Shown one piece after another: positions 4,674 through 64,000 of a stretch of DNA of 64,000 nt; the first letter of the stretch is position 1; each line of letters starts with the position of its first letter. Origin of the DNA: an uncultured Gammaproteobacteria bacterium (lineage in GTDB: Bacteria; Patescibacteriota; Microgenomatia; PFEM01; JAHIFH01); NCBI GenBank assembly GCA_964653685.1, contig CAZZHA010000001.1, positions 5,794 through 69,793 of the forward strand, in the 5' to 3' direction. The position numbers and the translations under genes are program-made. The notes below the pieces were generated by a model. It worked only from the letters and a program-made list of their open reading frames with translations, was not told the DNA's origin and searched no databases.

Positions 4674-5953
4674 ATCTTTTTTAATCTCTTAAACGTCTTT
4701 TCTCTTCCTAAAACCTCTATCGTTTCAAAGAGAGGCGGAGTAGCGGTTTTACCAGTAAGGGCAATTCTGGTTGCCATAAAATATTTGCCAGTATGCCAAT
4801 TATTCTTCTCTGCCAAATCTCTGAATAATTTTTCTAATCTCTTTGCCTCCCAAACCCTATTTTTTTCTAACTCCATGATTGATTTTTCGAACTGTTCTTT
4901 GAGTAATTTTTCTCCCTGACTTTTTTTAATGAGTAATTTTTTATCAACCTTTGGTTCTCTAATAAAAAAGTCAACTAAATCAGGATAATCAGAAAGTTTA
5001 ATCAATCTGTCTTTAATTAAAGGAATGGTTTGTTTAATTAAACTATCTGCCATTCCTTTAGGTATGTATGGTTTAATTAATTGAAGTAGTTCTTTATCTG
5101 TCTTTTCCCTAAGATAAACACCATTTAACCAATCTAATTTTCTTAAATCAAAAACAGGAGCCGAAGTTGAAATCCTTTTAAAAGAAAAATATTTAATAAA
5201 TTCATCTAAACTAAAAACCGTTTTGTCTTGGGGGTGTGACCAACCCATTAAACCAAAAAAGTTAACCATCGCTTCGGGTAAATAACCTTGTTCCTGATAC
5301 CAAGAAAGAGCGACCAGGTTTTTTCTTTTTGAAATTTTTGATTGGTCAGGATTTCTTAAAAGAGGCAAATGAGCAAATTCTGGTACCTTAGCCCCTAAGG
5401 CTTGATAAAGCATTATTTGCCGGGGAGTGTTAGAAATGTGGTCTTCACCTCGAATCACCTGGGAAATTTTCATTAACCAGTCATCGATGACCACAGCAAA
5501 ATTATAAACAGGATAGCCATTTGACCTTAAGATAACAAAATCTTCAATCTGTTGATTATCAAACTCTATTCTTCCACGAATAAGATCTTGCCAAGAAGTT
5601 TTTCCTTTTAAAACCTTAAATCGAATTGCCCCTTCATCTTGGTAAGCAAGTTTTTTTTCTAGCAATTCTTGAGCATATTTCTGATAAAGACTTATTCTTT
5701 CTGATTGACGATAAGGCCCAAACTTGCCCCTAACGTCCGGACCCTCATCGTAATTTAAACCTAGCCAGTGCAAGCCATCAAAAATTGCTTTTTCCGCTTT
5801 AGGTACATGGCGTTTTATGTCTGTATCTTCGATTCGAAGAATGAATTTGCCTTTGTTTTTTTTGGCAAAAGCATAATTAAAAAGAGAAATGTAGGCGGTA
5901 CCAACATGGGCAAAGCCGGTTGGCGAAGGCGAAATTCTGACTCGGATGCTCAT
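4670..5953 (-). CDS. gltX: Glutamyl-tRNA synthetase (short form)
   Basis: HIGH region PSPTGFAHVGTA and KMSKS-like KISKRK. The ORF track starts at 5971, but the ATG at 5953 (MSIRVRISPSPTG) matches GluRS N-termini and lies 8 nt downstream of TGcTAAAAT. Confidence 0.9.
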   Translation of the reverse strand: MSIRVRISPSPTGFAHVGTAYISLFNYAFAKKNKGKFILRIEDTDIKRHVPKAEKAIFDGLHWLGLNYDEGPDVRGKFGPYRQSERISLYQKYAQELLEKKLAYQDEGAIRFKVLKGKTSWQDLIRGRIEFDNQQIEDFVILRSNGYPVYNFAVVIDDWLMKISQVIRGEDHISNTPRQIMLYQALGAKVPEFAHLPLLRNPDQSKISKRKNLVALSWYQEQGYLPEAMVNFFGLMGWSHPQDKTVFSLDEFIKYFSFKRISTSAPVFDLRKLDWLNGVYLREKTDKELLQLIKPYIPKGMADSLIKQTIPLIKDRLIKLSDYPDLVDFFIREPKVDKKLLIKKSQGEKLLKEQFEKSIMELEKNRVWEAKRLEKLFRDLAEKNNWHTGKYFMATRIALTGKTATPPLFETIEVLGREKTFKRLKKI

Positions 5954-31679: not shown

Positions 31680-31688
31680 TGATAAAAT
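31680..31688 (+). promoter_or_regulatory. Extended -10 element upstream of tRNA-Pro
   Basis: TGaTAAAAT ends 11 nt before the tRNA 5' end. Confidence 0.45.
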
Positions 31689-31699
31689 TCAAGATGTAA

Positions 31700-31773
31700 C
31701 GGGGTGTGGCGCAGTTGGCTAGCGCGCACGCATGGGGTGCGTGAGGTCGCCGGTTCGAGCCCGGCCACCCCGA
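31700..31773 (+). tRNA. tRNA-Pro (anticodon GGG), CCA not encoded
   Basis: Hand-folded cloverleaf. Acceptor CGGGGTG/CACCCCG; D arm GCGC-AGTTGGCTA-GCGC; anticodon arm CACGC-ATGGGGT-GCGTG; T arm GCCGG-TTCGAGC-CCGGC; discriminator A, followed by CAA. Confidence 0.9.
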
Positions 31774-31778
31774 CAAAA

Positions 31779-32129
31779 ATGAAAATTTTTCTTCGTAAAG
31801 ATAAAAAACTTCGTGACCCAGGTAATTTTTATTTTGGCGATTACGGTGAAATTCCTATTGGTATTTCTTTAACAACAATCAATGAAGACAATCTTGACGA
31901 AAGCAAAGACACGAAACATTATCATCAAAAAGGCTATGAATTTTATTTTACTATTAAAGGTAAAGCTATTATTGAAATTAAAGATAAAGAAGTCGTTTTA
32001 GATAAAAATCATCTGATTATGGTCGAACCAGGTGAAAAACATTACGTTAAAAAAATTCTTAAAACTCCTTTTTCTGTGTTATCAATTTCCACTTTAAAAG
32101 ATAAAACTGATAAAGTTGTTGCGAAATAA
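31779..32129 (+). CDS. Cupin-like small protein
   Basis: The ORF track begins at 31704 inside the tRNA. The real ATG at 31779 (MKIFLRKDKK) lies 5 nt after the tRNA. Cupin motifs HYHQKGYEFYFTIKG and IMVEPGEKHYV. Confidence 0.7.
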   Translation: MKIFLRKDKKLRDPGNFYFGDYGEIPIGISLTTINEDNLDESKDTKHYHQKGYEFYFTIKGKAIIEIKDKEVVLDKNHLIMVEPGEKHYVKKILKTPFSVLSISTLKDKTDKVVAK

Positions 32130-50606: not shown

Positions 50607-50635
50607 ATTATAGAAAAATTCAGGATAAAAAGCAA
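50607..50635 (-). promoter_or_regulatory. Promoter for rplC and the downstream ribosomal genes
   Basis: Minus strand reads TTGCTT (50635-50630), a 17-nt spacer and TATAAT (50612-50607). Confidence 0.6.
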
Positions 50636-50668
50636 GCTGATTTTATTGTGAGTAAAATTAGAGCTAAT

Positions 50669-50962
50669 TTAATCAATTCCCCAGAATTTCTTCTCGCCCT
50701 CTTCATCTGGACCAATGAATTTCAGTTGTAAAAAATCCTTTAAGTCACTAATAAAATGGCCAATGCCAAAAGAAAAAGATAATTGTCCTAAAAGATGCTG
50801 ATAAAAAAATAAACCAAGCAGCATTAACATCACCCCATAAATCCAATGATGAGGAGCCCAAGTGGGATTATTAAGTTTCATATTAAGATAATAATGGCTC
50901 CATCTTCCAAGTAGATATCCTATTAAAGCAGCAATGACGAAAAAGAGGATTTTCCAGATCAT
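50669..50962 (-). CDS. Small hypothetical membrane protein
   Basis: 97 aa with three hydrophobic helices. TGgTAGAAT lies 7 nt upstream of the ATG. Confidence 0.55.
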   Translation of the reverse strand: MIWKILFFVIAALIGYLLGRWSHYYLNMKLNNPTWAPHHWIYGVMLMLLGLFFYQHLLGQLSFSFGIGHFISDLKDFLQLKFIGPDEEGEKKFWGID

Positions 50963-51029
50963 TTTCTTAATTCTACCAAACCAAACGATATTGACCTTTT
51001 AATTTTTCTGCTATAATTATTTACATTAT

Positions 51030-51590
51030 ATGCTGGTTAAAAAAATTATTCTCATTATCCTTGCTTTAGGAGCAGTTGGTACCTTAAGTTTTTTTCTTCT
51101 TAATAAAAATAGTTTGCCAGAGGTTACTCAGCAGGTTGGGATGGAAAAAGAAAATCTCGATGACCAATGGTTAACCTATACCAATGATTCTTATCAATAC
51201 GAAATTAAGTATCACCGTGACTGGCACAAGCAGGAAGAAAATGAACCACCCTACCCTCCGCCACCTGCGGGAATGAACTTCAGCCGGCGTTGGCTTGAAC
51301 CACTAGAGGTTTGTGATTTTCAGATTTCATCAAGCGATATCGTTGATAATTTTGAAGGGGAAATTGAGAGTCTCTCCCAAGACACTAATAAGCAAATGTC
51401 TCAAGCAGTAATCGCTGGCCAAAAGGCAACCAAGTTCGTTAGTTCAACCGAAAACCAATTAGTTGAGAGCTATTACCTAACTTATAAAAGAAATTCATTT
51501 AATTTGGGATTTAATATTCTCCGAGGGGAACACTTTAATACCTGTCAACAGGTCTTTAACCAAATGATTGCTTCTTTTAAGCTTTTATAG
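51030..51590 (+). CDS. Hypothetical secreted/anchored protein
   Basis: 186 aa. N-terminal TM (IILIILALGAVGTLSFFLL). No recognisable domain. Confidence 0.55.
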   Translation: MLVKKIILIILALGAVGTLSFFLLNKNSLPEVTQQVGMEKENLDDQWLTYTNDSYQYEIKYHRDWHKQEENEPPYPPPPAGMNFSRRWLEPLEVCDFQISSSDIVDNFEGEIESLSQDTNKQMSQAVIAGQKATKFVSSTENQLVESYYLTYKRNSFNLGFNILRGEHFNTCQQVFNQMIASFKLL

Positions 51591-52272
51591 CTTTTATTAA
51601 TAATCTTGTTGGCATTGAAGAATATTTCTTATAGTCTTTTTTATTCTTTTTAGCCTTTTTACCCACAGGGGTGGGTTCTTCAACACTTAACAGTTCAAAA
51701 CCAAAACTCATAATCGTGTTTATATAGTCAGAAAACTTTTTCGGGTGATATTTAATTTCTGTTCCCCAAGGTGTTTTCTCTATCTTTGCTTTATTACTAA
51801 AGTATTCTGAATGATTACTAACAAACCGAAGTGGATGAATAGTAATAAAAAATAGATATCCTCCTTTTGCTAACCATCTAGAAATACTCTCCATTGTTTT
51901 CTTAAAATCCTTTTGACTTAAATAATTAAAAGTCATATTACTTACGACAAGGTCTAAGCTTTCATTCCGTAGTTTTAAATTAGACAAGTTTGCCTGTATA
52001 AACCTTATATTGGGAAAAGAATTTCGGGCGATATTTAGCATATCAGGACTTATGTCAGTTCCGATAAGATTTTTTTCCCTCACTCCCAAATCAAGAAGTA
52101 GTTTTATTGTTCTTCCAGTTCCACACCCAGCATCAAGAACTCGCATCTTACTTTCCAATATTGGTTTTAAATGCCTTTCCATTGCTGGTTTTTCTACAAA
52201 TTTCCAACTAAATGATTTCTCTGAAAACTGAATATATTTAGCAGCTTGCACACCTGAGTATTTTACTTTCAT
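51577..52272 (-). CDS. Class I SAM-dependent methyltransferase
   Basis: 231 aa. Motif I VLDAGCGTGR, motif II DLVVSNMTFNY. The 3' end overlaps the convergent gene by 14 nt. Confidence 0.85.
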   Translation of the reverse strand: MKVKYSGVQAAKYIQFSEKSFSWKFVEKPAMERHLKPILESKMRVLDAGCGTGRTIKLLLDLGVREKNLIGTDISPDMLNIARNSFPNIRFIQANLSNLKLRNESLDLVVSNMTFNYLSQKDFKKTMESISRWLAKGGYLFFITIHPLRFVSNHSEYFSNKAKIEKTPWGTEIKYHPKKFSDYINTIMSFGFELLSVEEPTPVGKKAKKNKKDYKKYSSMPTRLLIKAIKA

Positions 52273-52340
52273 GGGGAGTCAATTATATCACTAGCTATGT
52301 AAATACAAAAACCCAGTAAATCGGGCTTTTCTATCCCTGA

Positions 52341-52373
52341 CTCCCTATCGTGGACGAAGTTAGAACTGGTTTG
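52341..52373. repeat. Island repeat copy 1
   Basis: CTCCCTATCGTGGACGAAGTTAGAACTGGTTTG. Lies 4 nt beyond the stop codon (52378-52380) of the EamA-like gene and 53 nt upstream of the -10 box of the methyltransferase gene. Confidence 0.7.
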
Positions 52374-52377
52374 AGCT

Positions 52378-52800
52378 TTAAATGCTAAGAATATAAATAC
52401 TTAATATTGCTAAAACAAGCCCTGTTATTTTTATTAATGTCAGTCTTTCGCCAAAAAATAGCAGACCAATGATCGCCGAAAAAATAATTGTAGAAATTGA
52501 CAAAAGAGGTAATCCAAGGCTAATAGGAGCCTTCTTTTGATACATCAAAAAATAAAGAAGGCTGCCAAAAGCACTAAAAATTCCTGCTAAACAAGCCAGT
52601 TTTACTCCTTTTGAGGTAATGGTTATTTCTTGACCAGTTGTTTTGAAAATAAAAATTAACCCCAAAGTAATTATTGCTGAGGCGACTGAGAGAGAAATTG
52701 ACCCAACAAGAGCATGTAGATGATTGCTGCTCAATTTAAGAAAAGCGTTGTAGATGGCAAAGAAAAAACCAGCGGCTATGCCAAAAATTACCCAATTCAT
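52378..52800 (-). CDS. Half-size EamA/DMT-superfamily transporter
   Basis: 140 aa, 4-5 TM, single EamA-like domain. TGgTATAAT lies 6 nt upstream of the ATG. Confidence 0.7.
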   Translation of the reverse strand: MNWVIFGIAAGFFFAIYNAFLKLSSNHLHALVGSISLSVASAIITLGLIFIFKTTGQEITITSKGVKLACLAGIFSAFGSLLYFLMYQKKAPISLGLPLLSISTIIFSAIIGLLFFGERLTLIKITGLVLAILSIYILSI

Positions 52801-52816
52801 GTTTTCATTATACCAA

Positions 52817-52844
52817 ACAAAAAAAGCCCATTAGCTTGGGCTTT
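52817..52844 (-). terminator. Rho-independent terminator
   Basis: Minus strand reads AAAGCCCA-agctaa-TGGGCTTT followed by TTTTGTTT. Downstream of the 52935-53426 gene. Confidence 0.6.
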
Positions 52845-52934
52845 CTGAAATTAGTTCGGCCAATAAAGCCATTTACAAACTCCAAATGTAAATTGGTCCA
52901 ACCAAAAACCTTTTGCTGGGAAACCAATTTTAAA

Positions 52935-53426
52935 TCACGATCCGGCTATTTTTGTCAATTTGATAACCGTAACGACTCCATTCTTTTCATTTCCCTGAAC
53001 CCTGGCCATAGAACCAAGCTCTAATTTGCTTTTATCACAAACTTCTTCCCCACTACCCAAATCACATTTACTTGAGGCATTAAAGGCGAGATTAGCTGTG
53101 TTAGCTGGCCGACCGGGTGATTCGTAAAGCAAAACCCAATTACCAGTTTGCCTTTCGGCATTAGCATCCCAATCAGTTAAATTGCCTGTCTTATCAAAAT
53201 TCTCGACCAAAACCGGCTGGCTATCTGATTCGTCAAGGTCTTGTTCAGCCTCTTCTATTGGAGCACTTGTCTCTTCGGAACTACTACCAGTGGGTAATTG
53301 AATTCCTGGCAAATTTATTGGTTTCTTGATTATTTTTGCCCCACCATAAACGACTATGGCTCCTACCACCAAAAGAATAATCAAAATTAACAAAGCCGCT
53401 CCTTGTTCGTTTTTTGATTTTCTCAT
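52935..53426 (-). CDS. Hypothetical secreted/anchored protein
   Basis: 163 aa. N-terminal TM (AALLILIILLVVGAIVVYGG). SD AAGGGGGTGAGG. Confidence 0.6.
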   Translation of the reverse strand: MRKSKNEQGAALLILIILLVVGAIVVYGGAKIIKKPINLPGIQLPTGSSSEETSAPIEEAEQDLDESDSQPVLVENFDKTGNLTDWDANAERQTGNWVLLYESPGRPANTANLAFNASSKCDLGSGEEVCDKSKLELGSMARVQGNEKNGVVTVIKLTKIAGS

Positions 53427-53471
53427 CTTTCCTCACCCCCTTTCTTTTTCCTTTAAAAGGTTCCTAATTCT

Positions 53472-53495
53472 CTCCTGTGGATAAAGTTAGAACTT
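53472..53495. repeat. Island repeat copy 3 (shortened)
   Basis: CTCCTGTGGATAAAGTTAGAACTT. Shares CTCC..GTGGAnnAAGTTAGAACT with copy 1. Abuts the GNAT stop codon. Confidence 0.55.
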
Positions 53496-53961
53496 ACTCA
53501 CTAATTTTCTTTTCTAGACAAATATCTATCTCTAAGTACCCATTACTACGATAAAAATCCAAGGCTTCTCTATTTTCCACATAGCAATTAAGATATATTT
53601 TCTGGAAACCTTCTCGCTTTGCCCAATCTGTTATGGTGTCTAATATTTTTTTACCGATTCCTTGTTTCTTTTTTTCAGGTATTACTCCTAGATTATCAAT
53701 TTCAAAATACCTACTTTTACGATATGATACTTCTTTTTCTTCGCCATTCGCGTATCCAATCATCTGTCCATCCTCTTCAGCGATCAAAAAACACCCCTTT
53801 CTACTTCTAATTGCTTCTTTGAAATATTTCTCTCCCTGAGGGGTATAGGCAAAGTCCTCAACAGCATCTTCGTCATATTCAGAATTATTCATGAAGATTT
53901 GCTTATTCAATTTTTTTACGGCTGGTAAATCGCGGATCGTTGCTTTCCGGATAGTTATCAC
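53494..53961 (-). CDS. GNAT family N-acetyltransferase
   Basis: 155 aa. Acetyl-CoA motif VIPEKKKQGIGKKIL. GTG start, 6 nt after TGaTATAAT. Confidence 0.85.
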   Translation of the reverse strand: MITIRKATIRDLPAVKKLNKQIFMNNSEYDEDAVEDFAYTPQGEKYFKEAIRSRKGCFLIAEEDGQMIGYANGEEKEVSYRKSRYFEIDNLGVIPEKKKQGIGKKILDTITDWAKREGFQKIYLNCYVENREALDFYRSNGYLEIDICLEKKISE

Positions 53962-54027
53962 AATTGAATTATATCAAAAGTGGTTCAACAATTTTTATCT
54001 GAAGTAGAACATCTATCTTCAAACTTA

Positions 54028-54060
54028 CTCCCTATCGTGGGCGATGTTCAGACTAGTTGG
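54028..54060. repeat. Island repeat copy 2
   Basis: CTCCCTATCGTGGGCGATGTTCAGACTAGTTGG. The first 13 nt are identical to copy 1. Lies 54 nt upstream of the -10 box of the GNAT gene. Confidence 0.7.
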
Positions 54061-54252
54061 GAACAAATTTAAGCAAGAAAAATCTAATAAATGAAACCAA
54101 AGATACTTGTTCGCAGAATCACTCGGGAAGAGAGTGATTAGAGCTGGATAAATGACCGGACAAAAATTTATCATATGTTGATATAGTTATAAATAGTCTC
54201 CGCAGGAAGTCTCACTTCAGGTTTAGGAGTTTGATAGTAAGTGGTTTGTTAT

Positions 54253-55779
54253 TTATTTAAATATTTCTCTAAGAAAGCTAAGGATTTTTTGCCAAAAGGT
54301 TAGTTTTGTTTCAGACAAAGGAGTAATTATTGGTTCTGGATTTGAAGTAATTTGTGGTGTGGGACTTGGTTGTTGTTCTATTTTTTCTTTAATCAGTTCT
54401 GTTGTCTGACCCAAGACTTCATTTTCCGAGGTTGTCTTTTTAGCTACAGCCAATTTTTCAGTTTTGGCAGAAATGTAATTAGACCACCTTCCCGGAGCGC
54501 AGCCGTTGCCGGCTCTGATTGTAAAATAATAGGTAGTGCTTGGGGCAAGAGCTTTTATAGTGTAGTTGACTACTCCAATCTTTTGAGCGGAATTAAATTG
54601 GGTGCCAAAACGCCAGTCGCCTTCCTTATAACCATAGGCAATAAAATAATAGGAAACATAATCGGTAACCGGCATAAAATATAAAGTGGCGGAATTTTCA
54701 GTGGTATCAATTTGAAATAATTTTGGCGCAGTTAAAGGCGGCCAATCTCCACAACCAAGGGCAGAAGTAGAACTTGTAGAAGTAGAACCGGTATCTTCTG
54801 CTACCGTAAAAGTAGTGAAATGGGCAGCCGTAAAAGTAACTAAATGAGTCGTTCGGTTATAACTTAATCCGGACACAATGCCACCAGTATCAGTTTGTCC
54901 ATCAACTAATATTTTTGGGCTGTTTAGGGTAATACTATACATCGTTAAAGAAGCTTGGGTATCGGTTAAATCTTTAATGAGGTCAGCGTCAAGGCTGATT
55001 ACTCCCTGGGAAATGCTTAATTTGCTGTCTAATGATTGCATCCAGGTCAAAGCATCGCGATCAGTGAAATTCATCTCCGCCAAAAAAGTTATTTTGCCAA
55101 TGTTTTCTCCACCTTCACTTTTCAGGAAATATAATCCGGAGATACGGGAAAAGTCGCCTTGATCGCCTAAGTTTGTGGCTACACCTTCATTGGTCATTTG
55201 TGTAGTAATAGTACTGATTGTTGGACATTCACCAGAACCTGGGTTGCACCATCCGCGAGTAGGAGAAGCGGCCGAATTCCAGGTTTGTTCATCTAAGTTG
55301 TAATAGGCAGATTTGCCTTGTTCTATGGTAACGCCAGTGGCGTCACTCGGATCAGCACCAGGATCACAAGTTTCGCTACCGTACTTTACGGCATAAACAC
55401 TATTGCTCTCATCTCTGAAAATTACCAAACAGGCGCCATCATCAGGGATACGAGTGTCATTATCGGTCGCGAAAGTCAAAAAACCGCCGCGGGGGACGCT
55501 CCCACTTAAATCTTGTGAATAGAAATAAGTGTAGTTTGGTTCTGTACCCTGATAAATTACCAATCTCCACCCGGAAAGACTAAGAGCTGTGTCCTGATCA
55601 GGATTTAGCAGCTCAATCCATTCTTCGCCGCCAGCACTAGGCTGCGCTACAAACTCGTCAATCATTACCACAGGATCACCATTTGCCCTTACCGGAGAAA
55701 TTCTTACGACAACGGCAAAAAAAGAGAAACAAAGAAGAAGCAGAAAAACAAAAACTAGTTTTTTCATCACTAAAAACAT
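54253..55779 (-). CDS. Secreted lamin-tail-domain (LTD) protein with a C-terminal fibronectin type III domain
   Basis: LTD motif VVMIDEFVAQPSAGGEEWIELLNP..LSGWRL. Fn3-like TAPKLFQIDTTENSATLYF..STTYYFTIRA. The ORF-track start at 55827 lies in the transposase relic. ATGs at 55779/55767 precede the signal peptide KKLVFVFLLLLCFSFFAVV. Confidence 0.8.
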   Translation of the reverse strand: MFLVMKKLVFVFLLLLCFSFFAVVVRISPVRANGDPVVMIDEFVAQPSAGGEEWIELLNPDQDTALSLSGWRLVIYQGTEPNYTYFYSQDLSGSVPRGGFLTFATDNDTRIPDDGACLVIFRDESNSVYAVKYGSETCDPGADPSDATGVTIEQGKSAYYNLDEQTWNSAASPTRGWCNPGSGECPTISTITTQMTNEGVATNLGDQGDFSRISGLYFLKSEGGENIGKITFLAEMNFTDRDALTWMQSLDSKLSISQGVISLDADLIKDLTDTQASLTMYSITLNSPKILVDGQTDTGGIVSGLSYNRTTHLVTFTAAHFTTFTVAEDTGSTSTSSTSALGCGDWPPLTAPKLFQIDTTENSATLYFMPVTDYVSYYFIAYGYKEGDWRFGTQFNSAQKIGVVNYTIKALAPSTTYYFTIRAGNGCAPGRWSNYISAKTEKLAVAKKTTSENEVLGQTTELIKEKIEQQPSPTPQITSNPEPIITPLSETKLTFWQKILSFLREIFK

Positions 55780-55847
55780 TTTTACCTTTTTTGATAAAAA
55801 TGTCAACATCTTATCCATCCACCACATATTGGAATTATTAGGGTAAT

Positions 55848-56048
55848 CAGTTTACCAAAGTCATAAAGGAACCCAGAACCACTGTCTGTCTGGGTCGCTT
55901 TGATCTGAAAGGGAGTGATTTTAATAAGCTTGTCTAAGAAATCAGCCAACGTTCTTGAAAAATGACTCTTGTAGATGTAGGAGAAAGTAAATTCAGAAAT
56001 GATATCAATGTCAGTAAGAATATACCTCTTGATTCCATGTTCGAATCT
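55848..56048 (-). mobile_element. Degenerate fragment of an rve (DDE integrase-core) transposase, IS481/IS3-like
   Basis: Own translation gives RFEHGIKRYILTDIDIISEFTFSYIYKSHFSRTLADFLDKLIKITPFQIKATQTDSGSGFLYDFGKL. It fits the rve pattern hhhD..S+...a......FL......p..I..vqTDNGsEF. There is no start codon and both ends are missing. Confidence 0.6.
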
Positions 56049-56105
56049 AACATTTGAAGTTGCGAAGAATATTTAAATTTGCTTAACTTATATTAGAGTT
56101 AGAAA

Positions 56106-57272
56106 ATGATGAAAATAATTACAGATAAATTAACCGCCCTGAAGAAAATAAAGCTATCCAAACTCCATTTAATACTCATAGCTTTGGGCTTATTGGTTTT
56201 ACTAGGTACAATCTCTGCTATTTATTTACAGAAAAGGCAACAAGGTTTCTTAAGAGAGGGGTCTGGACAACCACAGGGTTGGGGACAAAGACCGGGAGGA
56301 GCTCAGGATCTCGGCGAACCGCCATCGACCTCTCTCAAACCGCGTTGGAGTGGTTCTATTCCCAAACCCCCCAAAGAAAAGATTACCTACTACAAAGGCA
56401 TTTGGGGTGCGACATGGATTTATCCGGAAGAACATTCCAATCTTAAACCTGAACCTGAAAAATACCGCGGTTGGGGAGTGAATATTATTAATATCTCCCC
56501 AGGTTTTGAAATTAACAAAAACGGCGAGGTGCGCTACCCTTTGGACTTCCCTACTTATGAAGATATGGATGCCAGGATTGGCGAAATTGCCGAAATGTTT
56601 TACAAAGAAGATATTTATTTGGCCATGACGATTCAGGTTCATTATAAAGAAGAGTTTGTCCGCGGGGCCGAATGGGGCGGAGAAACGGCTTATATACCCA
56701 AGGAAAAGACACAAATTCCTGGATATTTCAAAAATTTTGACAATATTGTTGTTGATATGGCCAAAATCGCCCAAAAATATCACTTGGAATTGTTTTCGCC
56801 GTTAGGTGAACCGGAGAATGTATTTTACGATCCTAAATTAGCTTCCGATTGGAGTCAACAGGTTCTGCCCAAGGTTAAGAAATACTACAAAGGTAAAGTT
56901 TATTACAAGGGTGATTTACACAAAGGAGAGGGGGACAATATGAACTTCAGAGGCTATGATGTTTTAGGAATTATGCCTCACCCGGCTGAGTTAGCGTATA
57001 ATTTTAAGGCTCTCCGAGAAAAAGTGGTTATCAATATGGACAAAGGTCTGGCTTGGGCCAAAAGAGATGGAGTAAATGAGGTAGTCGTAGCCGAACATGG
57101 ATATGAAGGAGGGGGCAAGATGTGGCCTGCAGAAAACTTCGATATCCTCTTGGAAGAAAGCAGTAAAAGATTAAACGGGATTTTTTTAAGCGATCCATTT
57201 CCAACAGTTCTAAAAACAAAACAAGGTGAGCAAATTATCTCTGTGATGAAAAGGTGGTTTTCCTCCAAGTAA
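56106..57272 (+). CDS. Hypothetical membrane-anchored extracytoplasmic protein, possibly a TIM-barrel glycoside-hydrolase-like fold
   Basis: 388 aa with an N-terminal TM. Weak GH5-like hints (SPLGEPENV, VVVAEHGYEGGG). No firm family assignment. Confidence 0.45.
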   Translation: MMKIITDKLTALKKIKLSKLHLILIALGLLVLLGTISAIYLQKRQQGFLREGSGQPQGWGQRPGGAQDLGEPPSTSLKPRWSGSIPKPPKEKITYYKGIWGATWIYPEEHSNLKPEPEKYRGWGVNIINISPGFEINKNGEVRYPLDFPTYEDMDARIGEIAEMFYKEDIYLAMTIQVHYKEEFVRGAEWGGETAYIPKEKTQIPGYFKNFDNIVVDMAKIAQKYHLELFSPLGEPENVFYDPKLASDWSQQVLPKVKKYYKGKVYYKGDLHKGEGDNMNFRGYDVLGIMPHPAELAYNFKALREKVVINMDKGLAWAKRDGVNEVVVAEHGYEGGGKMWPAENFDILLEESSKRLNGIFLSDPFPTVLKTKQGEQIISVMKRWFSSK

Positions 57273-57312
57273 CCAGTCTGCTCCGCGGGCAAGACTCGAA
57301 CTAACATTAAAC

Positions 57313-57621
57313 TTACATCTTGATTTCAATATCAACGCCTGCGGGCATTTCGAGGTGCATTAAGGAGTCAATTGTTTTACTAGTTGGTTCAAGAATATCA
57401 ATTAATCTTTTATGAGTAAGAATTTGGAATTGTTCTCTGGCGTCTTTGTCAGTGTGGGGACTGGTGGTAACCGTAATCAGTTTTCGGTGGGTTGGTAAAG
57501 GCACAGGACCCACTACCTTGGCACCACTAGCTAAGGCTGTTTCTAAGATTTTTTCGCAACTTTCATCGATGACTCGATGATCATACGCTTTTAAACGTAC
57601 CCTTATTCTGCCTTTTGGCAT
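57313..57621 (-). CDS. rpsJ: 30S ribosomal protein S10
   Basis: 102 aa. [16 protein letters not shown] and [36 protein letters not shown]. Confidence 0.96.
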
Positions 57622-57627
57622 TTTTTC

Positions 57628-58818
57628 TTAGGCAATAATTTTACTAATTACTCCCGCTCCGACAGTGTGGCCACCTTCGCGAATAGCAAAACGGAAGCCT
57701 TCCTCCATGGCAACCGGCTGAATAAGTTTGACTGTCATCTTGGCATTATCACCAGGCATGACCATTTCCACTCCTTTAGCGAGAGTGACTTCACCGGTTA
57801 CGTCTGTAGTTCGAACATAAAATTGAGGTTTGTAACCGCTAAAGAAAGGAGTGTGACGACCACCTTCTTCTTTGGTTAAGATATAAACTTCTGCCTCAAA
57901 TTCTTGATGAGGCTTGATGGTACCGGGCTTGGCTAAAACTTGGCCTCGCTCAACGTCTTTCTTTTCAATTCCTCGAAGGAGGATGCCGACGTTATCGCCA
58001 GCCTCACCTTCATCAAGAGTCTTGCGGAACATTTCAACACCAGTGACCGTGGTTTTTTGGGTATCGCGTAGACCGACAATTTCGATTTCATCACCAACTT
58101 TAATTTTACCTCGTTCGATTCTCCCGGTAACAACCGTCCCTCGACCTTTAATAGAGAAAACATCCTCAAGAGGCATCAAGAAAGGTTTATCTAAAGGCCG
58201 TTTAGGTGTCGGAATATTTTCATCAACCGCCTTCATCAGCTCAAGAACGGTTTTTTCTGCTTCAGCATCGCCCTCAATGGCCTTAGCGGCGGAACCTCGG
58301 ATAATCGCAATTTTGTCACCAGGGAATTTATATTTAGTTAAAAGTTCCCTGATTTCCATTTCAACCAGATCAAGCATCTCTTTGTCCTTAACCAAATCAA
58401 CTTTATTTAAGAAAACGACCATGGATGGCACATCAACTTGACGAGCTAAGAGAATGTGCTCTCGAGTTTGAGGCATTGGACCATCATCGGCGGCAACAAC
58501 AAGAATGGCACCATCCATTTGGGCAGCCCCAGTAATCATGTTTTTGATAAAGTCTTTGTGTCCGGGACAGTCAATGTGAGCATAGTGACGCTTTTCCGTC
58601 TCATACTCAATGTGGGAAATAGAAATTGTCAAACCTCGTTCTTTTTCTTCAGGAGCGTTATCAATCTGATCAAAGGGGATATATTTTGTCCCCGTATTGG
58701 CTTTCTCCAAAACCTTGGTAATGGCCGCGGTTAAAGTCGTCTTGCCATGGTCAACGTGACCAATGGTCCCAATATTAACGTGAGGTTTTTCTCTTTTAAA
58801 TTTTGTTTTTTCAGCCAT
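57628..58818 (-). CDS. tuf: Elongation factor Tu
   Basis: 396 aa. [19 protein letters not shown]. Confidence 0.98.
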
Positions 58819-58890: not shown

Positions 58891-61017
58891 TTATTTTTCT
58901 CTGCCAGAAGTAGCTCCAGCTTTAGTGGAAACAATTTTTTCCGTAATATTAGCCGGCACTTCTTGATAATGAGAAAATTCCATATAGGGATTGGCCCTAC
59001 CCTGAGTAATACTCCTCAAAGTGGTGGCATAACCTGAAACTTCGGCCAAAGGAATGAGAACCGTAATTACCCGAATATTGCCCCGTGCCTCTGTTTCCTG
59101 AATTTGAGCCCGCTTACTAGACAAATCGCCAATAACATCACCCATAAACTCATCAGGCGTAGTCACTTCTAATTTCATAATCGGTTCTAAGAGAACCAAA
59201 TTGGCTTGCTTGGCCGCCGCTTGAAAACCCATTGAACCAGCAATCTTAAAAGCAATATCTGAAGAATCAACTTCATGATAACTGCCGTCATAGACCGCCA
59301 CAGACACATCAGTCACCGGATAACCTACTAAAATTCCTTTATCCATCGCCTCCTTAACACCCTTTTCAATCGCCGGAATGTAAACAGAAGGAATGGCTGT
59401 TCCTCGAATTTCATTGGTGAACTTAAAGCCCTCACCTCGACCTAAAGGCTCCAGTCTAAGAAAACAATGACCATATTGACCTCGGCCACCTGATTGACGA
59501 ATATATTTACCTTCGCCTCTAGCCATCTGGGTAATTGTTTCCTTGTAGGCGACTTGGGGCTGTCCAGTCCTGGCTTCGACCCCAAACTCCCGCTTCATTC
59601 GGTCAACAATAATTTCCAGATGCAACTCACCCATACCAGAAATAATTGTCTGGCCAGTCTCCCGATCAGACTTAATTTGAAAAGTCGGATCTTCTTCAGA
59701 AAGACGATTAAGAGCATAACCAAGTTTTCCTTGGTCAGCCCGGGTTTTAGGTTCAATCGCAAGAGAAATGACCGGCTCAGGAAAAGTAATCGATTCTAAA
59801 ACAATCGGCTTGGCTTTATCACAAAGAGTATCACCCGTCGCCGCTTCTTTCAAACCAACAATGGCAATAATTTCTCCGGCTTCAGCCGTTTCAATTTGCT
59901 CTCGATTGTTGGCATGCATCAGCAGTAAACGCCCCACTCTTTCAGACCGTTTTTTGGTACTATTGTAAACTTCTTTACCGGCTTTTAATGTTCCCGAATA
60001 AATCCGAATATAAGTTAGTCTACCCACATGGGGGTCAGATTGAATTTTAAAGGCTAGAGCCGCAAAAGGGCCCTTAGGATCACAAGTTCTTTTTTCTTCC
60101 TCACCCGTTTCAGGGTTAGTCCCTTTAATGGCCGGAACATCAAGCGGATTGGGTAAAAAATCAACCACTCCATCTAAAATAGGTTGAACACCTTTATTAC
60201 GCAAGGAGGCTCCGGTATAAACCGGGACAAGTTGATTAGCGATGGTTGCCTGACGAATGCCTGTTTTTAATTCTTCAAGGCTAATTTCTTCACTCCGTAA
60301 AAATTTTTCTGTAAGATCTTCATTGGTTTCGGCCACTAATTCAACCAATTCTTCTCGATACTTTTTCGCTTGCTCAACTAGATTGGCGGGAATTTCTTTG
60401 GTTTCAAATTTCTCTCCGGTTTTATCCTTTTCTTCCCAAATCAGGGCTTTTTGATTGAGAACATCAATTACACCAACAAAATCTTTTTCACTACCAATCG
60501 GCATTGTAAGAACAATCGGCTTAGCTCCTAAACGATCTTTAATCATCCCCACTGTCCGTTCAAAGTTTGCTCCCAATTTATCCATCTTGTTAATGAAGCA
60601 AAGGCGGGGAACATGATAACCGTCAGCTTGGTGCCAAACTTTTTCTGACTGAGATTGAACCCCTTCCTCAGCATCAAAAACAACAATCCCGCCGTCTAAA
60701 ACTCTTAAAGAGCGTTCTACTTCAGCCGTAAAATCAATATGGCCGGGAGTATCAATAATATTAACTCGATAGTCACGCCAAAAAGCGGTTGTCGCTGCTG
60801 ACACAATCGTAATCCCCCGTTCCTTTTCTTGCTCCATCCAATCCATCTGGGTAGTACCTTCATCGATATCGCCGATTTTATAGCTCTTGCCAGTATAATA
60901 AAGGACCCGCTCAGTTGTGGTCGTTTTACCAGCATCAATATGGGCAATAATACCAATGTTCCGAACTTTTTCAATCGGGACTTTTCTTATGGTAACTGTT
61001 TCGTTTTTTTCGGCCAT
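58891..61017 (-). CDS. fusA: Elongation factor G
   Basis: 708 aa. [24 protein letters not shown]. TGaTAAAAT lies 12 nt upstream of the ATG. Confidence 0.98.
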
Positions 61018-61132
61018 CTTTCTGTCTTTATTTTATCAATTTTTAGGCAAATAAAAAACCGCCTCTGTCAAGAAGTAGGTTTGCTTCGAGTTTATTCTAA
61101 CAAAATCCTATTGATTACTCAAACGTAATGTC

Positions 61133-61489
61133 CTAATAACCTCGTTCCTTCCCTGAACTCCTTGTTTTCTCAAACAACTCTTGTTGAATCTCATCATCTT
61201 CTGTTTCGAAATGATGGTCGCTTGCAAAATCTCTTACTTCCATCATTCCAAACATGCCTGAACCATCAAAAACAACAAAAGTGCCATGTTGAGGTAATCT
61301 ACAATTACCTACGACCCTATTAGTTTGGTGGTGTTCAATGCAAAGCTCGGTTAAATCACCTTCAGCTCTGATAACCAGTCTATCCTTCATCCAAGCAACC
61401 ATCTCACTCCTTCTAAGGGAAAATGAACCTTCTATTTCGTCCCAACAATCCCGACAGATTGCCTTTGCTGTGGGTTTTCTAATCGACAT
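61133..61489 (-). CDS. Hypothetical Cys/His-containing protein
   Basis: 118 aa. CRDC..C..HH..C pattern and an acidic C-terminus. No recognisable family, and no obvious SD or -10 box at the start. Confidence 0.45.
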   Translation of the reverse strand: MSIRKPTAKAICRDCWDEIEGSFSLRRSEMVAWMKDRLVIRAEGDLTELCIEHHQTNRVVGNCRLPQHGTFVVFDGSGMFGMMEVRDFASDHHFETEDDEIQQELFEKTRSSGKERGY

Positions 61490-61550
61490 AAACTAAAAAA
61501 TTGCTTTTGGGCAGGTAATAAAATAAAAATAATAGAATCCTGACTTCTAT

Positions 61551-62126
61551 TCAAAAACCTCTTTGTCGGTAAAGCTTAGGATCAATCACCTTTACCATAG
61601 CTTGAGTATCAAGAGTTTCATCTAAAAATTGGTTAATCTTTTTTACTTGACTCGCTGGCTTTTTCAAAACTTGATTATAGTTAATATAGATGACTTCAAT
61701 ATTGGGTTGCTTGCCCAACCATAATTTAACCTCTTTTAAATGCTTTTTGAATAAGGTAGCCATCTTTTTATCACTGGCTTTATTCACTGGTTTGCCTCTT
61801 CTTTTAAGCATTTGTCTTTGGGAAGCAAGAATCTCTTCCATCTTCCGTTGCATAAAAATTACTTTGTAATTGTAGTCTTTGGGTAAATATTTTAAGAATT
61901 CAGACACCATCTTAACGGTCTTACCTTGAACCTGTTTAAGCCAAGTTTTATCCCGCCTAATCTGTTTAACTTTTTCAAATTCATAATAACCTTTAGGGTT
62001 ATCCTCATCGGCCTTTCTCAGATTATCTGTCAAAACAGACATCCCACCGGCTTTCATCATCTTCATCATCATTGAGGTACCAGAACGAGGTAAACCAGAA
62101 ACAATCGTAACCGTTTTTTGTTTCAT
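61551..62126 (-). CDS. Sulfotransferase family protein
   Basis: 191 aa. PAPS 5'-phosphosulfate-binding-loop-like GLPRSGTSMMMKMM at the N-terminus. Size and layout match small bacterial sulfotransferases. Confidence 0.65.
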   Translation of the reverse strand: MKQKTVTIVSGLPRSGTSMMMKMMKAGGMSVLTDNLRKADEDNPKGYYEFEKVKQIRRDKTWLKQVQGKTVKMVSEFLKYLPKDYNYKVIFMQRKMEEILASQRQMLKRRGKPVNKASDKKMATLFKKHLKEVKLWLGKQPNIEVIYINYNQVLKKPASQVKKINQFLDETLDTQAMVKVIDPKLYRQRGF

Positions 62127-62133
62127 TAAGTCA

Positions 62134-62142
62134 ATTTTAGCA
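62134..62142 (-). promoter_or_regulatory. Extended -10 promoter, 7 nt upstream of the sulfotransferase ATG
   Basis: Minus strand reads TGcTAAAAT, then tgactta, then ATG (62126). Confidence 0.5.
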
Positions 62143-62162
62143 AACGTCGTGAATAAAAAAAG

Positions 62163-62639
62163 CTACCACCTGAAGTGAGCAAAGGCTTTATTAGCTTCAG
62201 CAATCTTATTAATTTCTTCTTTCTTAGCGACCGCGCCGCCTTCTTTTTCAGCCGCCTCGATTAACTCAACCGCTAACTTCTCATAAAAGTGATGGTATTC
62301 CTTACTAGGTCTTGCTTGGGCGGCCTGAATAAGCCAACGAATAGCCAATGATTCTCGCCGGTCACCTTTAACCGGTATTGGTACTTGGTAAGCAGCACCG
62401 CCAACCCGACGAGGTCGAACCTCCATTTGAGGTTTAACATTTTCCAAAGCTTGATGAAAAACTTCCAAAGGATTACTCTTGGTTTTTTCTTCAATAAGTT
62501 TAAAAGCCTGATAAACGTGTTTTTGAGCAACTGATTTCTTTCCCTGACGCATCGTCCGATTGATCAATTTGGTTACTAACCGGCTTTTGTAGATCTCATC
62601 AGGAATGACCGTCCTTTTTGGTGCTTTTTTACCTCTCAT
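62163..62639 (-). CDS. rpsG: 30S ribosomal protein S7
   Basis: Real start [14 protein letters not shown] at 62639. [19 protein letters not shown]. The ORF-track extension to 62735 lies inside the rpsL tail. Confidence 0.95.
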
Positions 62640-63123
62640 TGTTTTCTCCTTTCTCTTCTTCTTTTTTCTCAGTTCTTTCTTCACTCTTTCCGCCACCAGC
62701 CGCTGGTGTAGCGGCGGCGCCCTTACGGGTACCATATTTGGATCGAGCCTTTTTTCTGTCCTCTACGCCAGCCGTATCAAATTTACCTCTAACCACATGA
62801 TATTTTACTCCTGGTAAATCTTTAACTCGACCACCTCTAACTAAAACAACCGCATGCTCAGCCAAATTATGGCCTTCACCAGCAATATAGGCGGTCACTT
62901 CTTTTTTATTAGAGAGCCTAACTCGAGCCACTTTTCTTAAAGCCGAGTTAGGTTTCTTAGGAGGCATTGTTTTGACATAAAGAACTACTCCTCGTTTAAA
63001 GGGATTGGTCACTTCTGTCATTCGCCTGTCTTTGGTATTAAAAGTTTTTCGCAAGGCAGCCGCTTTGACCTTTTTTCTTGTTTTCTTTCTGCCTTTACGA
63101 ATTAATTGACTGATTCTTGGCAT
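62629..63123 (-). CDS. rpsL: 30S ribosomal protein S12 with a C-terminal extension of about 25 aa
   Basis: 164 aa. [39 protein letters not shown]. Tail ..[28 protein letters not shown]. Confidence 0.95.
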
Positions 63124-63129
63124 ATTTTT

Positions 63130-63138
63130 ATTTTATCA
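63130..63138 (-). promoter_or_regulatory. Extended -10 promoter, 6 nt upstream of the rpsL ATG
   Basis: Minus strand reads TGaTAAAAT, then aaaaat, then ATG (63123). Confidence 0.5.
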
Positions 63139-63167
63139 CGAATTTAGGTTCAAATAAAGGAGTTTTT

Positions 63168-64000
63168 TCACTCTTCAATCTTGGCTCGCTCCGGAGTCAC
63201 CGGAATTAAACGACCAATGATTACATTTTCTTTAAGCCCGAGCAACTTATCTTCTTTCCCTTCAACTGCGGCATCGGTCAAAACAATGGTGGTTCTTTCA
63301 AAAGAGGCAGCCGAAAGCCAGGATTCGGTGTAAATTGAAGAACGACTTATTCCCAGGATTACCACTTGAGCTGAGGCCGGCTCACCACCCTCAGCCAGTA
63401 CTTTTTCATTCTCTTCTTCAAAAGTAGTCCGATTAACAAACTGACCAGGCAATAAAGAAGTATCGCCTGAAGTTTCTATCCGAACTTTATCGCTCATTTT
63501 CTTCACAATCACCTCAAAATGCTTATCTTGAATCTGAATTCCTTGTGATTCATAAACCATCTGTAGCTCCTCAATCAAATAGGCCTGAGCAGCTTTTAGA
63601 CCTCTAACTTCTAACACTTCTCTTGTATCAAGCGATCCAGTCGCTAATTGAGTCCCCGCATCAACCAAGTCTTTATCATTAACATTAATTTCACTAACTG
63701 CTGGGATAAGATATTCTTTTTCTTCAGGAGGTTTAACACCAACTGTCTTAATTTTTATTCTATAACCTTCTTCTGTTTCCAAAACTTCAACCTTCCCAGC
63801 AATTTCGGCTAGGGGTGCCAAAATTTTGGGTTTTCTAGCTTCAAATAGCTCTTCAACTCTCGGCAAACCCTGAGTCACGTCAGAAACAGCAATCCCACCA
63901 AAATGATGAGTTCTTAAAGTCAGCTGAGTACCTGGTTCGCCAATTGATTGAGCTCCGATTACCCCTACTGGTGTCCCTATTTCTACCATAGTTTTAGTGG
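63168..64000 (-). CDS. rpoC: DNA-directed RNA polymerase beta' subunit, C-terminal part (N-terminus outside the window)
   Basis: Trigger-loop region [28 protein letters not shown] and C-terminal [10 protein letters not shown]. The open frame continues to the window edge. Confidence 0.93.

Follow-up and report, generated by a model that had tools for sequence, protein, structure and literature searches.

Probable lineage-specific gene accretion at a permissive boundary within the str operon of a Microgenomates genome

Gene order and candidate signals at the rpsG-fusA junction

The window, which is the whole 64-kb stretch of DNA that was analyzed, carries on its minus strand rpsL, rpsG, a gene for a 191-aa protein (ST), a gene for a 118-aa protein (CH118), fusA, tuf and rpsJ, in that order (Table 1). 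The four core genes keep the order and orientation of the canonical str operon (rpsL-rpsG-fusA-tuf), the upstream link to rpoBC and the downstream link to rpsJ are retained around them, and an ORF check showed that the interruption is real, with ST and CH118 co-oriented between rpsG and fusA, as a reading of the sequence alone had proposed. The spacers measure 36 nt (rpsG-ST), 61 nt (ST-CH118) and 115 nt (CH118-fusA), and the low-complexity C-terminal tail of rpsL overlaps rpsG by 11 nt. A second insertion in the same cluster, also reported by the sequence-only reading, was located at the rpsJ-rplC junction; homology between the window and its close relative L001 stops just past rpsJ. Multigene insertions between str and S10 type operons have been described in Gammaproteobacteria (PMC6735719), and resemble the present case in lying at boundaries between transcription units, whereas here it is the classical str operon itself that is broken, at the rpsG-fusA junction. 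Literature searches on str-operon interruption in CPR bacteria returned nothing specific.

Table 1. Features of the str region, in window coordinates
Feature	Position	Strand	Basis
Extended -10-like box TGATAAAAT, 6 nt before rpsL ATG	63130..63138	-	Box-to-ATG geometry as at ST and fusA
rpsL (S12), 164 aa	62629..63123	-	ORF; Pfam Ribosom_S12_S23 on L001 equivalent; tblastn
rpsG (S7), 158 aa	62163..62639	-	ORF; Pfam Ribosomal_S7 on L001 equivalent
Extended -10-like box TGCTAAAAT, 7 nt before ST ATG	62134..62142	-	Motif scan; kept in L001
ST, minimal 191-aa PAPS-type sulfotransferase (predicted)	61551..62126	-	Pfam, motifs, predicted fold
ST-to-CH118 spacer	61490..61550	-	Sequence comparison, folding
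CH118, 118-aa Cys/His protein, putative zinc-binding	61133..61489	-	Family alignment, dN/dS
Promoter-like site TTGAGT-17-TAGAAT with TG, just past CH118 stop	61094..61122	-	Sequence comparison
Conserved hairpin AACC-U-GCUUCU / UGAC / AGAGGC-GGUU running into T6	61053..61081	-	Comparison across relatives
Extended -10-like box TGATAAAAT, 12 nt before fusA ATG	61030..61038	-	Motif scan, relatives
fusA (EF-G), 708 aa	58891..61017	-	ORF, homology
tuf (EF-Tu), 396 aa	57628..58818	-	ORF, homology
rpsJ (S10), 102 aa	57313..57621	-	ORF, homology

In the window the motif TGNTAWAAT has 23 occurrences where 10.1 would be expected, a count reached in 0 of 100 shuffles. For eleven of the 23 boxes, an ORF of 70 aa or more starts 6-12 nt downstream, and one lies 11 nt before tRNA-Pro. 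Judged by these counts, a TGnTAwAAT box 6-12 nt upstream of the start codon is the normal arrangement of this genome, and the promoter-like boxes previously noted at ST and fusA are present with that usual spacing. The ST box probably drives a leaderless transcript (literature searches on leaderless mRNAs in CPR bacteria returned nothing specific), and the fusA box is kept as TGnTAnAAT in 6/6 close relatives. No -10-like box was found in front of CH118. The ST-CH118 spacer holds a weak A/U hairpin with a T-run, followed by a degenerate CTGCC..GGCAG hairpin with a T-run, the latter also preceding CH118 in L012 and L073. This spacer folded no better than shuffles (z = -0.04), and single-sequence folding of the spacers gave the same outcome except in L012 (z = -2.1). 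Past the CH118 stop, a TGTTAAAAT version of the promoter-like site is kept in L001, L012 and L073. Scanning 60800-63300 against Rfam (E ≤ 5) gave chance snoRNA matches only, so this stretch holds neither a known leader nor a known riboswitch.

The hairpin before fusA is terminator-like. In its alignment, pairing holds in 98% of cells and compensatory changes are absent. One pair is broken in the window copy by a G-to-A change, and a consensus terminator scan did not flag this conserved hairpin in the window, where its stem is weakened. A block of about 60 nt comprising the hairpin, T6 and TGnTAnAAT is kept in L009, which has no insert and an rpsG-fusA gap of 80 nt, and also in L010, L012 and L073. 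Therefore the separate promoter-like element of fusA predates the insert and was not created by it, and the earlier proposal that the insert had split the operon into separately promoted units is not supported. Since a hairpin resembling a terminator and a promoter-like box of its own already precede fusA in the clade, the junction behaves as an operon boundary, with rpsL-rpsG apparently one unit and fusA-tuf another. The promoters, the terminator and any co-transcription at the junction are predictions from sequence.

Properties of the two inserted genes

ST scored 38.1 bits against PF13469 (cut-off 27) and 36.5 bits against PF00685 (cut-off 22). Its 5'-PSB loop, GLPRSGTS, occupies residues 11-18; the stretch V9-S10-G11-L12-P13-R14-S15-G16-T17-S18 is invariant in 30 family members and aligns with PKSGTT of SULT1 enzymes. 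The 3'-PB residues R94 and S102 are likewise invariant in the 30 members, aligning with (Y)VARNxKDxxVS of SULT1 chains. An AF2 model (pLDDT 88.8) showed the sulfotransferase alpha/beta fold, and the best structural matches were human tyrosylprotein sulfotransferases TPST1/TPST2 (PDB 5wri, 3ap3), while the ST profile matched TPST in the 5'-PSB loop only (E 0.4-0.7). From the Pfam scores, both PAPS-binding motifs and the predicted fold, the 191-aa protein is a sulfotransferase, which upholds the first assignment. The 5'-phosphosulfate would be bound by the GLPRSGTS loop, and the 3'-phosphate by R94/S102.

ST shares the PRSGT loop and the 3'-PB Arg/Ser pair with known PAPS-dependent sulfotransferases (PF00685 Sulfotransfer_1, PF13469 Sulfotransfer_3), but at 191 aa it is shorter than their catalytic domains (240-300 aa), with a sequence identity of 13-19%. 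Cytosolic SULTs carry a GxxGxxK motif in their C-terminal region. Alignments of SULTs with ST stop at about SULT residue 230, where ST ends (residue 191), so the SULT C-terminal part is absent from ST; the GxxGxxK/RKG region and the full architecture of about 290 aa that define the cytosolic SULT family are missing.

The ST family, very large and closely conserved (about 190 aa, 7985 homologues), includes proteins 59-67% identical to ST in Anaerolineae, KSB1, Cloacimonadota and Blastocatellia, whereas the neighboring EF-G is only 55-57% identical to that of non-Patescibacteria. PF00685 and PF13469 were both present in 120/120 of the ST homologues listed. The family spreads across many phyla in a patchy and probably horizontal manner. 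At 85 other ST loci the recurrent neighbors were Phosphodiest (12), Sulfatase (9) and a fused ATP-sulfurylase/APS-kinase, that is a PAPS synthase (6), and one homologue lies inside an exopolysaccharide cluster with two more sulfotransferases. Homologues of ATP-sulfurylase, APS-kinase (PAPS synthase), sulfatase and phosphodiesterase were absent from the 64-kb window, no characterized member of the ~190-aa subfamily was found, and literature searches on sulfotransferases in Patescibacteria and on sulfate activation in CPR bacteria returned nothing specific. The likeliest reaction of ST is the transfer of sulfate from PAPS onto an acceptor outside the ribosome, for instance a small molecule, a glycan or a peptide.

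CH118 carries the Cys/His residues C12-x2-C15, C50-x2-H53-H54 and C63. The residues conserved in its family are C12, C15, G21, G44, L46, C50, H53, H54, H68 and F71; C12, C15, C50, H53 and H54 are kept in at least 90% of 19 family representatives, H68 is invariant and C63 is not conserved. At least four Cys/His ligands in knuckle spacing, as in a small zinc-binding protein, are thus found in the family, and CH118 is a putative zinc-binding protein on this pattern. Scans of CH118 and its relatives against Pfam, NCBIfam and PHROG returned no match, in agreement with the initial statement that the second gene belongs to no recognized family, and a word-indexed search with the family profile gave no further members. 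The family is small and restricted to Patescibacteria-like genomes.

Divergence from L001 gave dN/dS values of 0.15 for ST and 0.28 for CH118, against 0.04-0.09 for the flanking rpsG, fusA and tuf, and two more lineages, at 50-60% identity, have the CH118 ORF uninterrupted. ST and CH118 are real genes under purifying selection. The GC content of ST is 34.9% versus 41-44% in its neighbors; its GC3 (0.35) equals theirs, so composition does not mark ST as foreign. No integrase or transposase ORF was found within 61018-62162, only short chance-level repeats surround the insert (no flanking direct or inverted repeats or target-site duplication), and no tRNA target lies beside it, the sole tRNA of the window being at 31700. 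A mobile element or genomic island was rejected on these grounds.

The junction in relatives and the order of arrival

At the rpsG-fusA junction ST occurs only in the window and L001-L003, and is absent from L009-L012, L016, L020, L021 and L073; the sister lineages that lack it there have EF-G 86-87% identical. L012 and L073/L074 have rpsG, a CH118 homologue and fusA without ST, and no fewer than three species-level lineages keep CH118 at this site, whereas L009 and L010 lack it there. As CH118 stands without ST at this site in two sister lineages, it is the older resident and the two genes do not form a module: CH118 arrived before ST. Within the small clade of window/L001, L012 and L073/L074, CH118 has been inherited vertically as part of the junction. 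A neighbor-joining tree (about 400 residues, without support values) placed window/L001 as sister to the other four. The two genes had been described as one insert, and this view fails on the same distribution and on the absence of CH118 from all 85 other ST loci. The contrary case that the sequence-only reading had allowed for, a conserved and vertically inherited pair of known function in relatives, applies to CH118 within the small clade, and neither to ST, seen in window/L001-L003 only, nor as regards a known function.

In other Microgenomates the same junction holds unrelated cargo, namely GIY-YIG with Ham1, a PMT glycosyltransferase with ATP-cone, a PIN toxin, a His-phosphatase with PIG-L, and Transglutaminase/VWA with AAA_5. 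A junction filled with so many unrelated genes in relatives looks like ordinary genome plasticity, and not like a new translation-linked system.

Preferred reading, alternatives and meaning

With a probability of about 0.7, the rpsG-fusA boundary in this Microgenomates lineage is permissive and gene-accumulating, and two unrelated genes came to it at different times. In the ancestor of the small clade (window/L001, L012, L073, L009 and L010), rpsG would already have been followed by the terminator-like hairpin and T-run, and fusA would have had a TGnTAnAAT promoter-like box of its own. CH118 would have settled between the rpsG stop and the old hairpin, to be lost later, apparently, in L009 and L010. 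On the branch to the window and L001 the ~190-aa ST gene would then have been added between the rpsG stop and CH118, with a -10 box located 7 nt ahead of the ATG, which is the host's usual leaderless-type arrangement; ST could instead have moved within the genome rather than being newly acquired. With the old hairpin and the fusA box both downstream of the two genes, the expression of fusA-tuf would have been left intact. ST and CH118 would probably be transcribed from the ST box and by rpsL-rpsG read-through, ending at the old hairpin.

Among the alternatives, a misassembled or chimeric contig has to be considered for a metagenome-assembled Patescibacteria genome, several related MAGs being clearly mislabelled taxonomically. 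The order rpoB-rpoC-rpsL-rpsG-ST-CH118-fusA-tuf-rpsJ recurs, however: at least 10 contigs, up to 359 kb long and assembled from separate samples in ENA, JGI and Logan, show it with a DNA identity of 94%, and the region is collinear at 94.3% identity over 6.7 kb, which leaves an artefact with a negligible probability. It had also been asked if the enzyme has a component of the translation machinery as its target, and modification of an adjacent-encoded one (EF-G, EF-Tu, S7 or S12) would explain its position. The position in the str operon and a TPST-like fold compatible with protein substrates are all that favor this; S7, EF-G, EF-Tu and S10 genes lie near 0/85 other ST family members, whose neighbors suggest sulfur-donor supply, sulfatase/phosphodiesterase enzymes and polysaccharide synthesis, the sister lineages with closely similar EF-G lack ST at the junction, and unrelated cargo fills the junction elsewhere. 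The answer leans to no, and the idea is highly improbable. A functional pair, with CH118 as substrate, partner or regulator of ST, would recall Xanthomonas, in which the gene of the tyrosine sulfotransferase RaxST adjoins that of its peptide substrate RaxX. As there, a sulfotransferase with a (predicted) TPST-like fold lies beside a small-protein gene, and ST and CH118 are neighbors in one orientation, with a short spacer and no box before CH118; ST finds its best structural matches among protein-tyrosine sulfotransferases, and CH118 ends in ...ERGY behind an acidic stretch. Unlike RaxST/RaxX, ST and CH118 co-occur nowhere else, and no secretion or processing genes are nearby. CH118 lacks ST in L012, L073 and every other context seen, ST lacks CH118 in 85/85 other loci, and the RG[YF] C-terminus is a family trait independent of ST (L012 ends in RGA). 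Such a pair is accordingly very unlikely.

It is also unlikely, on balance, that CH118 is a genuine str member in the clade, a lineage-specific translation- or replication-associated zinc-ribbon protein, with only ST as a passenger. Its recurrence at one site under purifying selection agrees with this, as does the CxxC...CxxHH pattern kept in the family, and the family profile gave weak matches in the PDB to the eL34 zinc ribbon (residues 35-87, E 0.09-0.3). A distant homologue, P0127, overlaps the dnaB start by 11 nt on four contigs; in many bacteria rplI occupies the position before dnaB. The location of CH118 between rpsG and fusA and of this homologue at dnaB would fit a role at the ribosome or replisome. 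Resemblance to small zinc-ribbon or treble-clef proteins such as eL34 extends to the zinc knuckles, a CxxC and, about 35 residues on, a CxxH(H) knuckle in a beta-rich domain (low-confidence model), but the second knuckle is CxxHH and not CxxC as in eL34, and CH118 has in addition an invariant PQH..F motif and a C-terminal helix. The eL34 matches are not significant and 0/19 family members matched Pfam Ribosomal_L34e at E ≤ 0.1; the AF2 model, built from a three-sequence input, is poor (pLDDT 48.5), and Foldseek against the PDB found no match below E 0.6. Moreover, L009 and L010 lack the gene at the site, and other homologues adjoin HTH_3 or PDDEXK genes on short contigs. The broader proposal, that CH118 and its ~17 relatives are a Patescibacteria-specific zinc-ribbon protein working with the ribosome or replisome, again with ST as passenger, is speculative and rather improbable; if true, such a protein might compensate for components that these reduced bacteria have lost.

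The locus is thus read as a permissive operon boundary at which genes have accreted in a lineage-specific way. The operon is indeed interrupted, but the break reflects a boundary that existed beforehand, and the junction gathers unrelated genes in many Microgenomates. That a Patescibacteria bacterium keeps a sulfotransferase under selection raises the question of its PAPS source, and the recurrent neighbors of the family (PAPS synthase, sulfatase- and phosphodiesterase-family genes) offer a starting point for finding the acceptor of the ST subfamily. The small Cys/His family of such genomes, encoded beside core information-processing genes, merits a structure.

Two genes between rpsG and fusA

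The interruption of the str operon was confirmed. A 191-aa putative PAPS-type sulfotransferase ORF (ST) and a 118-aa Cys/His-protein ORF (CH118) lie between rpsG and fusA, with spacers of 36 nt (rpsG-ST), 61 nt (ST-CH118) and 115 nt (CH118-fusA). Every motif quoted in the sequence-only reading was found at its place in the window, and the interpretation built on them was, as a whole, partly supported. In a relative ~94% identical in DNA, at least 10 contigs recovered from different samples show the same gene order, and an assembly artefact was therefore rejected. The closest named protein was from 'Microgenomates group bacterium RBG_19FT_COMBO_39_10', which makes the organism a member of the Patescibacteria/CPR.

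Both ST and CH118 are genuine genes. Between the window and its relative L001, dN/dS was 0.15 for ST and 0.28 for CH118, with 0.04-0.09 for the flanking rpsG, fusA and tuf, and the CH118 ORF was intact at 50% identity in relative L012 and 60% in L073/L074. The rpsL product (164 aa) carries a Lys/Glu/Gly-rich C-terminal tail of ~34 aa (62629-62740), relatives having no match beyond residue 130; the rpsL 3' end overlaps rpsG by 11 nt, and 32 further codons are open in frame upstream of the conserved rpsG start.

Features of the window (window positions)
Feature	Position	Strand	Basis
rpoC, 3' part	from 63168	minus	ORF calling and sequence
rpsL	62629-63123	minus	ORF calling and sequence
rpsG	62163-62639	minus	ORF calling and sequence
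ST, 191-aa ORF	61551-62126	minus	ORF calling and sequence
CH118, 118-aa ORF	61133-61489	minus	ORF calling and sequence
fusA	58891-61017	minus	ORF calling and sequence
tuf	57628-58818	minus	ORF calling and sequence
rpsJ	57313-57621	minus	ORF calling and sequence
Second insertion	50635-57313		
TGTTA(A/G)AAT box	61094-61122		
TGnTAwAAT boxes (examples)	5962, 24928, 24963, 39232, 51009, 52282, 52807, 53968, 61030, 62134, 63130		
tRNA-Pro(GGG)	31700-31774		
141-aa GTG ORF	31704-32129		

The extended -10-like motif TGNTAWAAT was observed 23 times in the window (10.1 expected), and 11 of the 23 copies precede the start codon of an ORF of ≥70 aa by 6-12 nt (these include rpsL 6 nt, ST 7 nt, fusA 12 nt). 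Given this enrichment, and a spacing as close as that of other genes, the promoter-like box proposed for ST is credible. Boxes 6-12 nt from start codons imply mostly leaderless transcripts, which suggests that leaderless mRNAs are widespread in this genome. About half of the boxes sit without room for a Shine-Dalgarno site before the start codon. CH118 has no TGNTAWAAT box before its start and is therefore probably co-transcribed with ST in the window, and with rpsG in L012. At the tRNA-Pro(GGG) gene, another copy of the box, TGATAAAAT, ends 11 nt upstream (region 31680-31774), and the GTG ORF overlapping this tRNA is probably spurious.

History of the junction

Species-representative genomes were scanned with S7 and then by tblastn, and the junctions of the closest relatives were read. 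rpsG and fusA were contiguous in L009 (80-nt gap), L011, L016, L020 and L021, and separated by a 222-nt gap without an ORF in L010. When this synteny was compared, as had been proposed, vertical retention held within this small clade for CH118, whose homologue lies between rpsG and fusA in L012 and L073/L074, and did not hold for ST, which among the closest relatives joins CH118 only in the window and L001-L003. More distant Microgenomates-like relatives carried GIY-YIG and Ham1 genes, with fusA >5 kb away (L013), a PMT-family glycosyltransferase and an ATP-cone protein (L014), small membrane proteins and an antitoxin/PIN pair (L015), a transglutaminase/VWA protein and an AAA_5 ATPase (L017), a histidine phosphatase and a PIG-L deacetylase (L018), or small membrane proteins (L038, L040); genes thus turn up repeatedly at this junction across the group. 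Several public MAGs with the labels Gammaproteobacteria, Pseudomonadales or Erysipelotrichia (L010, L012, L013, L015, L017, L018, L019) have str-operon proteins 54-87% identical to those of the window and are evidently mislabelled Patescibacteria.

In a neighbour-joining tree of S7 and the EF-G N-terminus, built without support values, window/L001 was sister to (L010,(L009,(L073,L012))). In the simplest history, CH118 would have been gained before the window/L001/L009/L010/L012/L073 clade diversified and lost from L009 and L010, with the later addition of ST on the branch of the window and L001. The arrivals of ST and CH118 are thus two separate events rather than a single insert.

A block of ~60 nt directly 5' of fusA occurs once in the window and has near-identical counterparts in L001, L012, L073, L010 and the insert-free L009. 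Its first part, a 10-bp hairpin with one bulge running into T6, looks like an intrinsic terminator; across relatives 98% of cells pair and two one-sided changes keep pairing, with no compensatory changes in the hairpin alignment. Its second part, ~15 nt beyond the hairpin, is a TGnTAnAAT box that in the window stands 12 nt from the fusA ATG. In L009 the block directly follows rpsG, so the putative separate fusA promoter element is older than the insertions, and the earlier claim that the insert had split the operon into separately promoted units is not supported. Both genes occupy the stretch from the rpsG stop to the hairpin, leaving the old putative terminator and the fusA box untouched. The boundaries of the insertion fall precisely in the short spacer 3' of the rpsG stop. 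A search for an integrase, a transposase, flanking repeats or a tRNA target found none.

Just 3' of the CH118 stop and 5' of the hairpin, the TGTTA(A/G)AAT box is conserved in L012, L073 and L001. A transcript from it would be mainly hairpin and T-run and could therefore act as an attenuator leader of fusA or be a short RNA. In L010, which lacks CH118, a perfect 47-nt tandem repeat of 2.8 copies (5547-5678) follows the conserved promoter-like box of fusA and precedes its ATG.

The second insertion noted in the ribosomal cluster was upheld, with ~6.7 kb of extra genes after rpsJ. The L009 homologue of window 50635 (rplC region) lies within 12 nt of rpsJ, L012 has ~0.5 kb extra at this site, and homology between the window and the 94%-identical L001 ends at 57279, immediately beyond rpsJ; even close relatives therefore differ at this site.

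The CH118 and ST families

Pfam, NCBIfam and PHROG scans gave no match for CH118, in agreement with its description as having no recognisable family. An exhaustive profile search returned 17 representatives, all 86-125 aa, sharing C12-x2-C15, G21, G44-x-L46 and C50-x2-H53-H54, with H68-x2-F71 invariant. From the Cys/His motif originally read, C12, C15, C50, H53 and H54 were conserved and C63 was not; the conserved residues form a plausible zinc site. The predicted structure was poor (pLDDT 48.5), making a fold search with it meaningless.

The family has been weighed as a Patescibacteria-specific zinc protein associated with the ribosome or replisome, which we consider improbable. The family profile matched the zinc-ribbon portion of the ribosomal protein eL34 weakly and without significance (E 0.09-0.3), a likeness that Pfam did not confirm. 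A distant member (P0127, 122 aa) overlaps the dnaB start by 11 nt on four Patescibacteria-like contigs (L067 3296-3664, L068, L069, L070), suggesting translational coupling with the replicative helicase gene; other members, found on short contigs, have HTH_3 or PDDEXK genes nearby. On contig L066, a 90-aa ORF (419-706) directly upstream of the family gene is weakly similar to the family (E 0.0025) and may be a tandem paralogue.

The sulfotransferase assignment held, ST scoring above the curated cut-offs of two Pfam models for sulfotransferases. The 7985 homologues scored are nearly all 189-205 aa, with 59-67% identity across Anaerolineae, KSB1, Cloacimonadota, Blastocatellia and others. VSGLPRSGTS (5'-phosphosulfate loop) and R94 and S102 (3'-phosphate site) were invariant in 30 members compared, as were further residues including D42-N43-P44, E49, E51, K72 and H129. 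The PAPS-site motifs of the family profile align to those of cytosolic SULTs. ST is unusually short and lacks the C-terminal part of these enzymes.

Contexts were compared at 85 ST-family loci (80 metagenomic loci and five long contigs). None had S7, EF-G, EF-Tu, S10 or CH118 within its flanks (0/85). This shows the position in the str operon to be a peculiarity of the window lineage, and nothing was found linking ST to translation. Neighbours were of the Phosphodiest family at 12 loci, the Sulfatase family at nine and a fused ATP-sulfurylase/APS-kinase (PAPS synthase) at six; the KSB1 gene shares an exopolysaccharide cluster with two further sulfotransferases, and a PNP_UDP_1 phosphorylase occurred twice (L054, L057). 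These contexts support an enzyme that uses PAPS and acts on a non-translational acceptor. A search for PAPS synthase homologues that covered the 64-kb window found none. Loci with the recurrent sulfurylase/kinase, sulfatase-family and type I phosphodiesterase-family neighbours include L114, L116, L127, L140, L147 and L153. EF-G, encoded beside ST, is 55-57% identical to non-Patescibacteria proteins, and ST, at 60-67% identity, is more similar than this to its homologues in other phyla, which fits horizontal spread of the ST family; GC3 gave no foreign signal in ST.

CH118, a Cys/His protein, is the older, clade-restricted resident of the junction. ST is a new, uncharacterised member of the known sulfotransferase superfamily at a permissive operon boundary, and the recurrent neighbours of its family are possible clues to its pathway.
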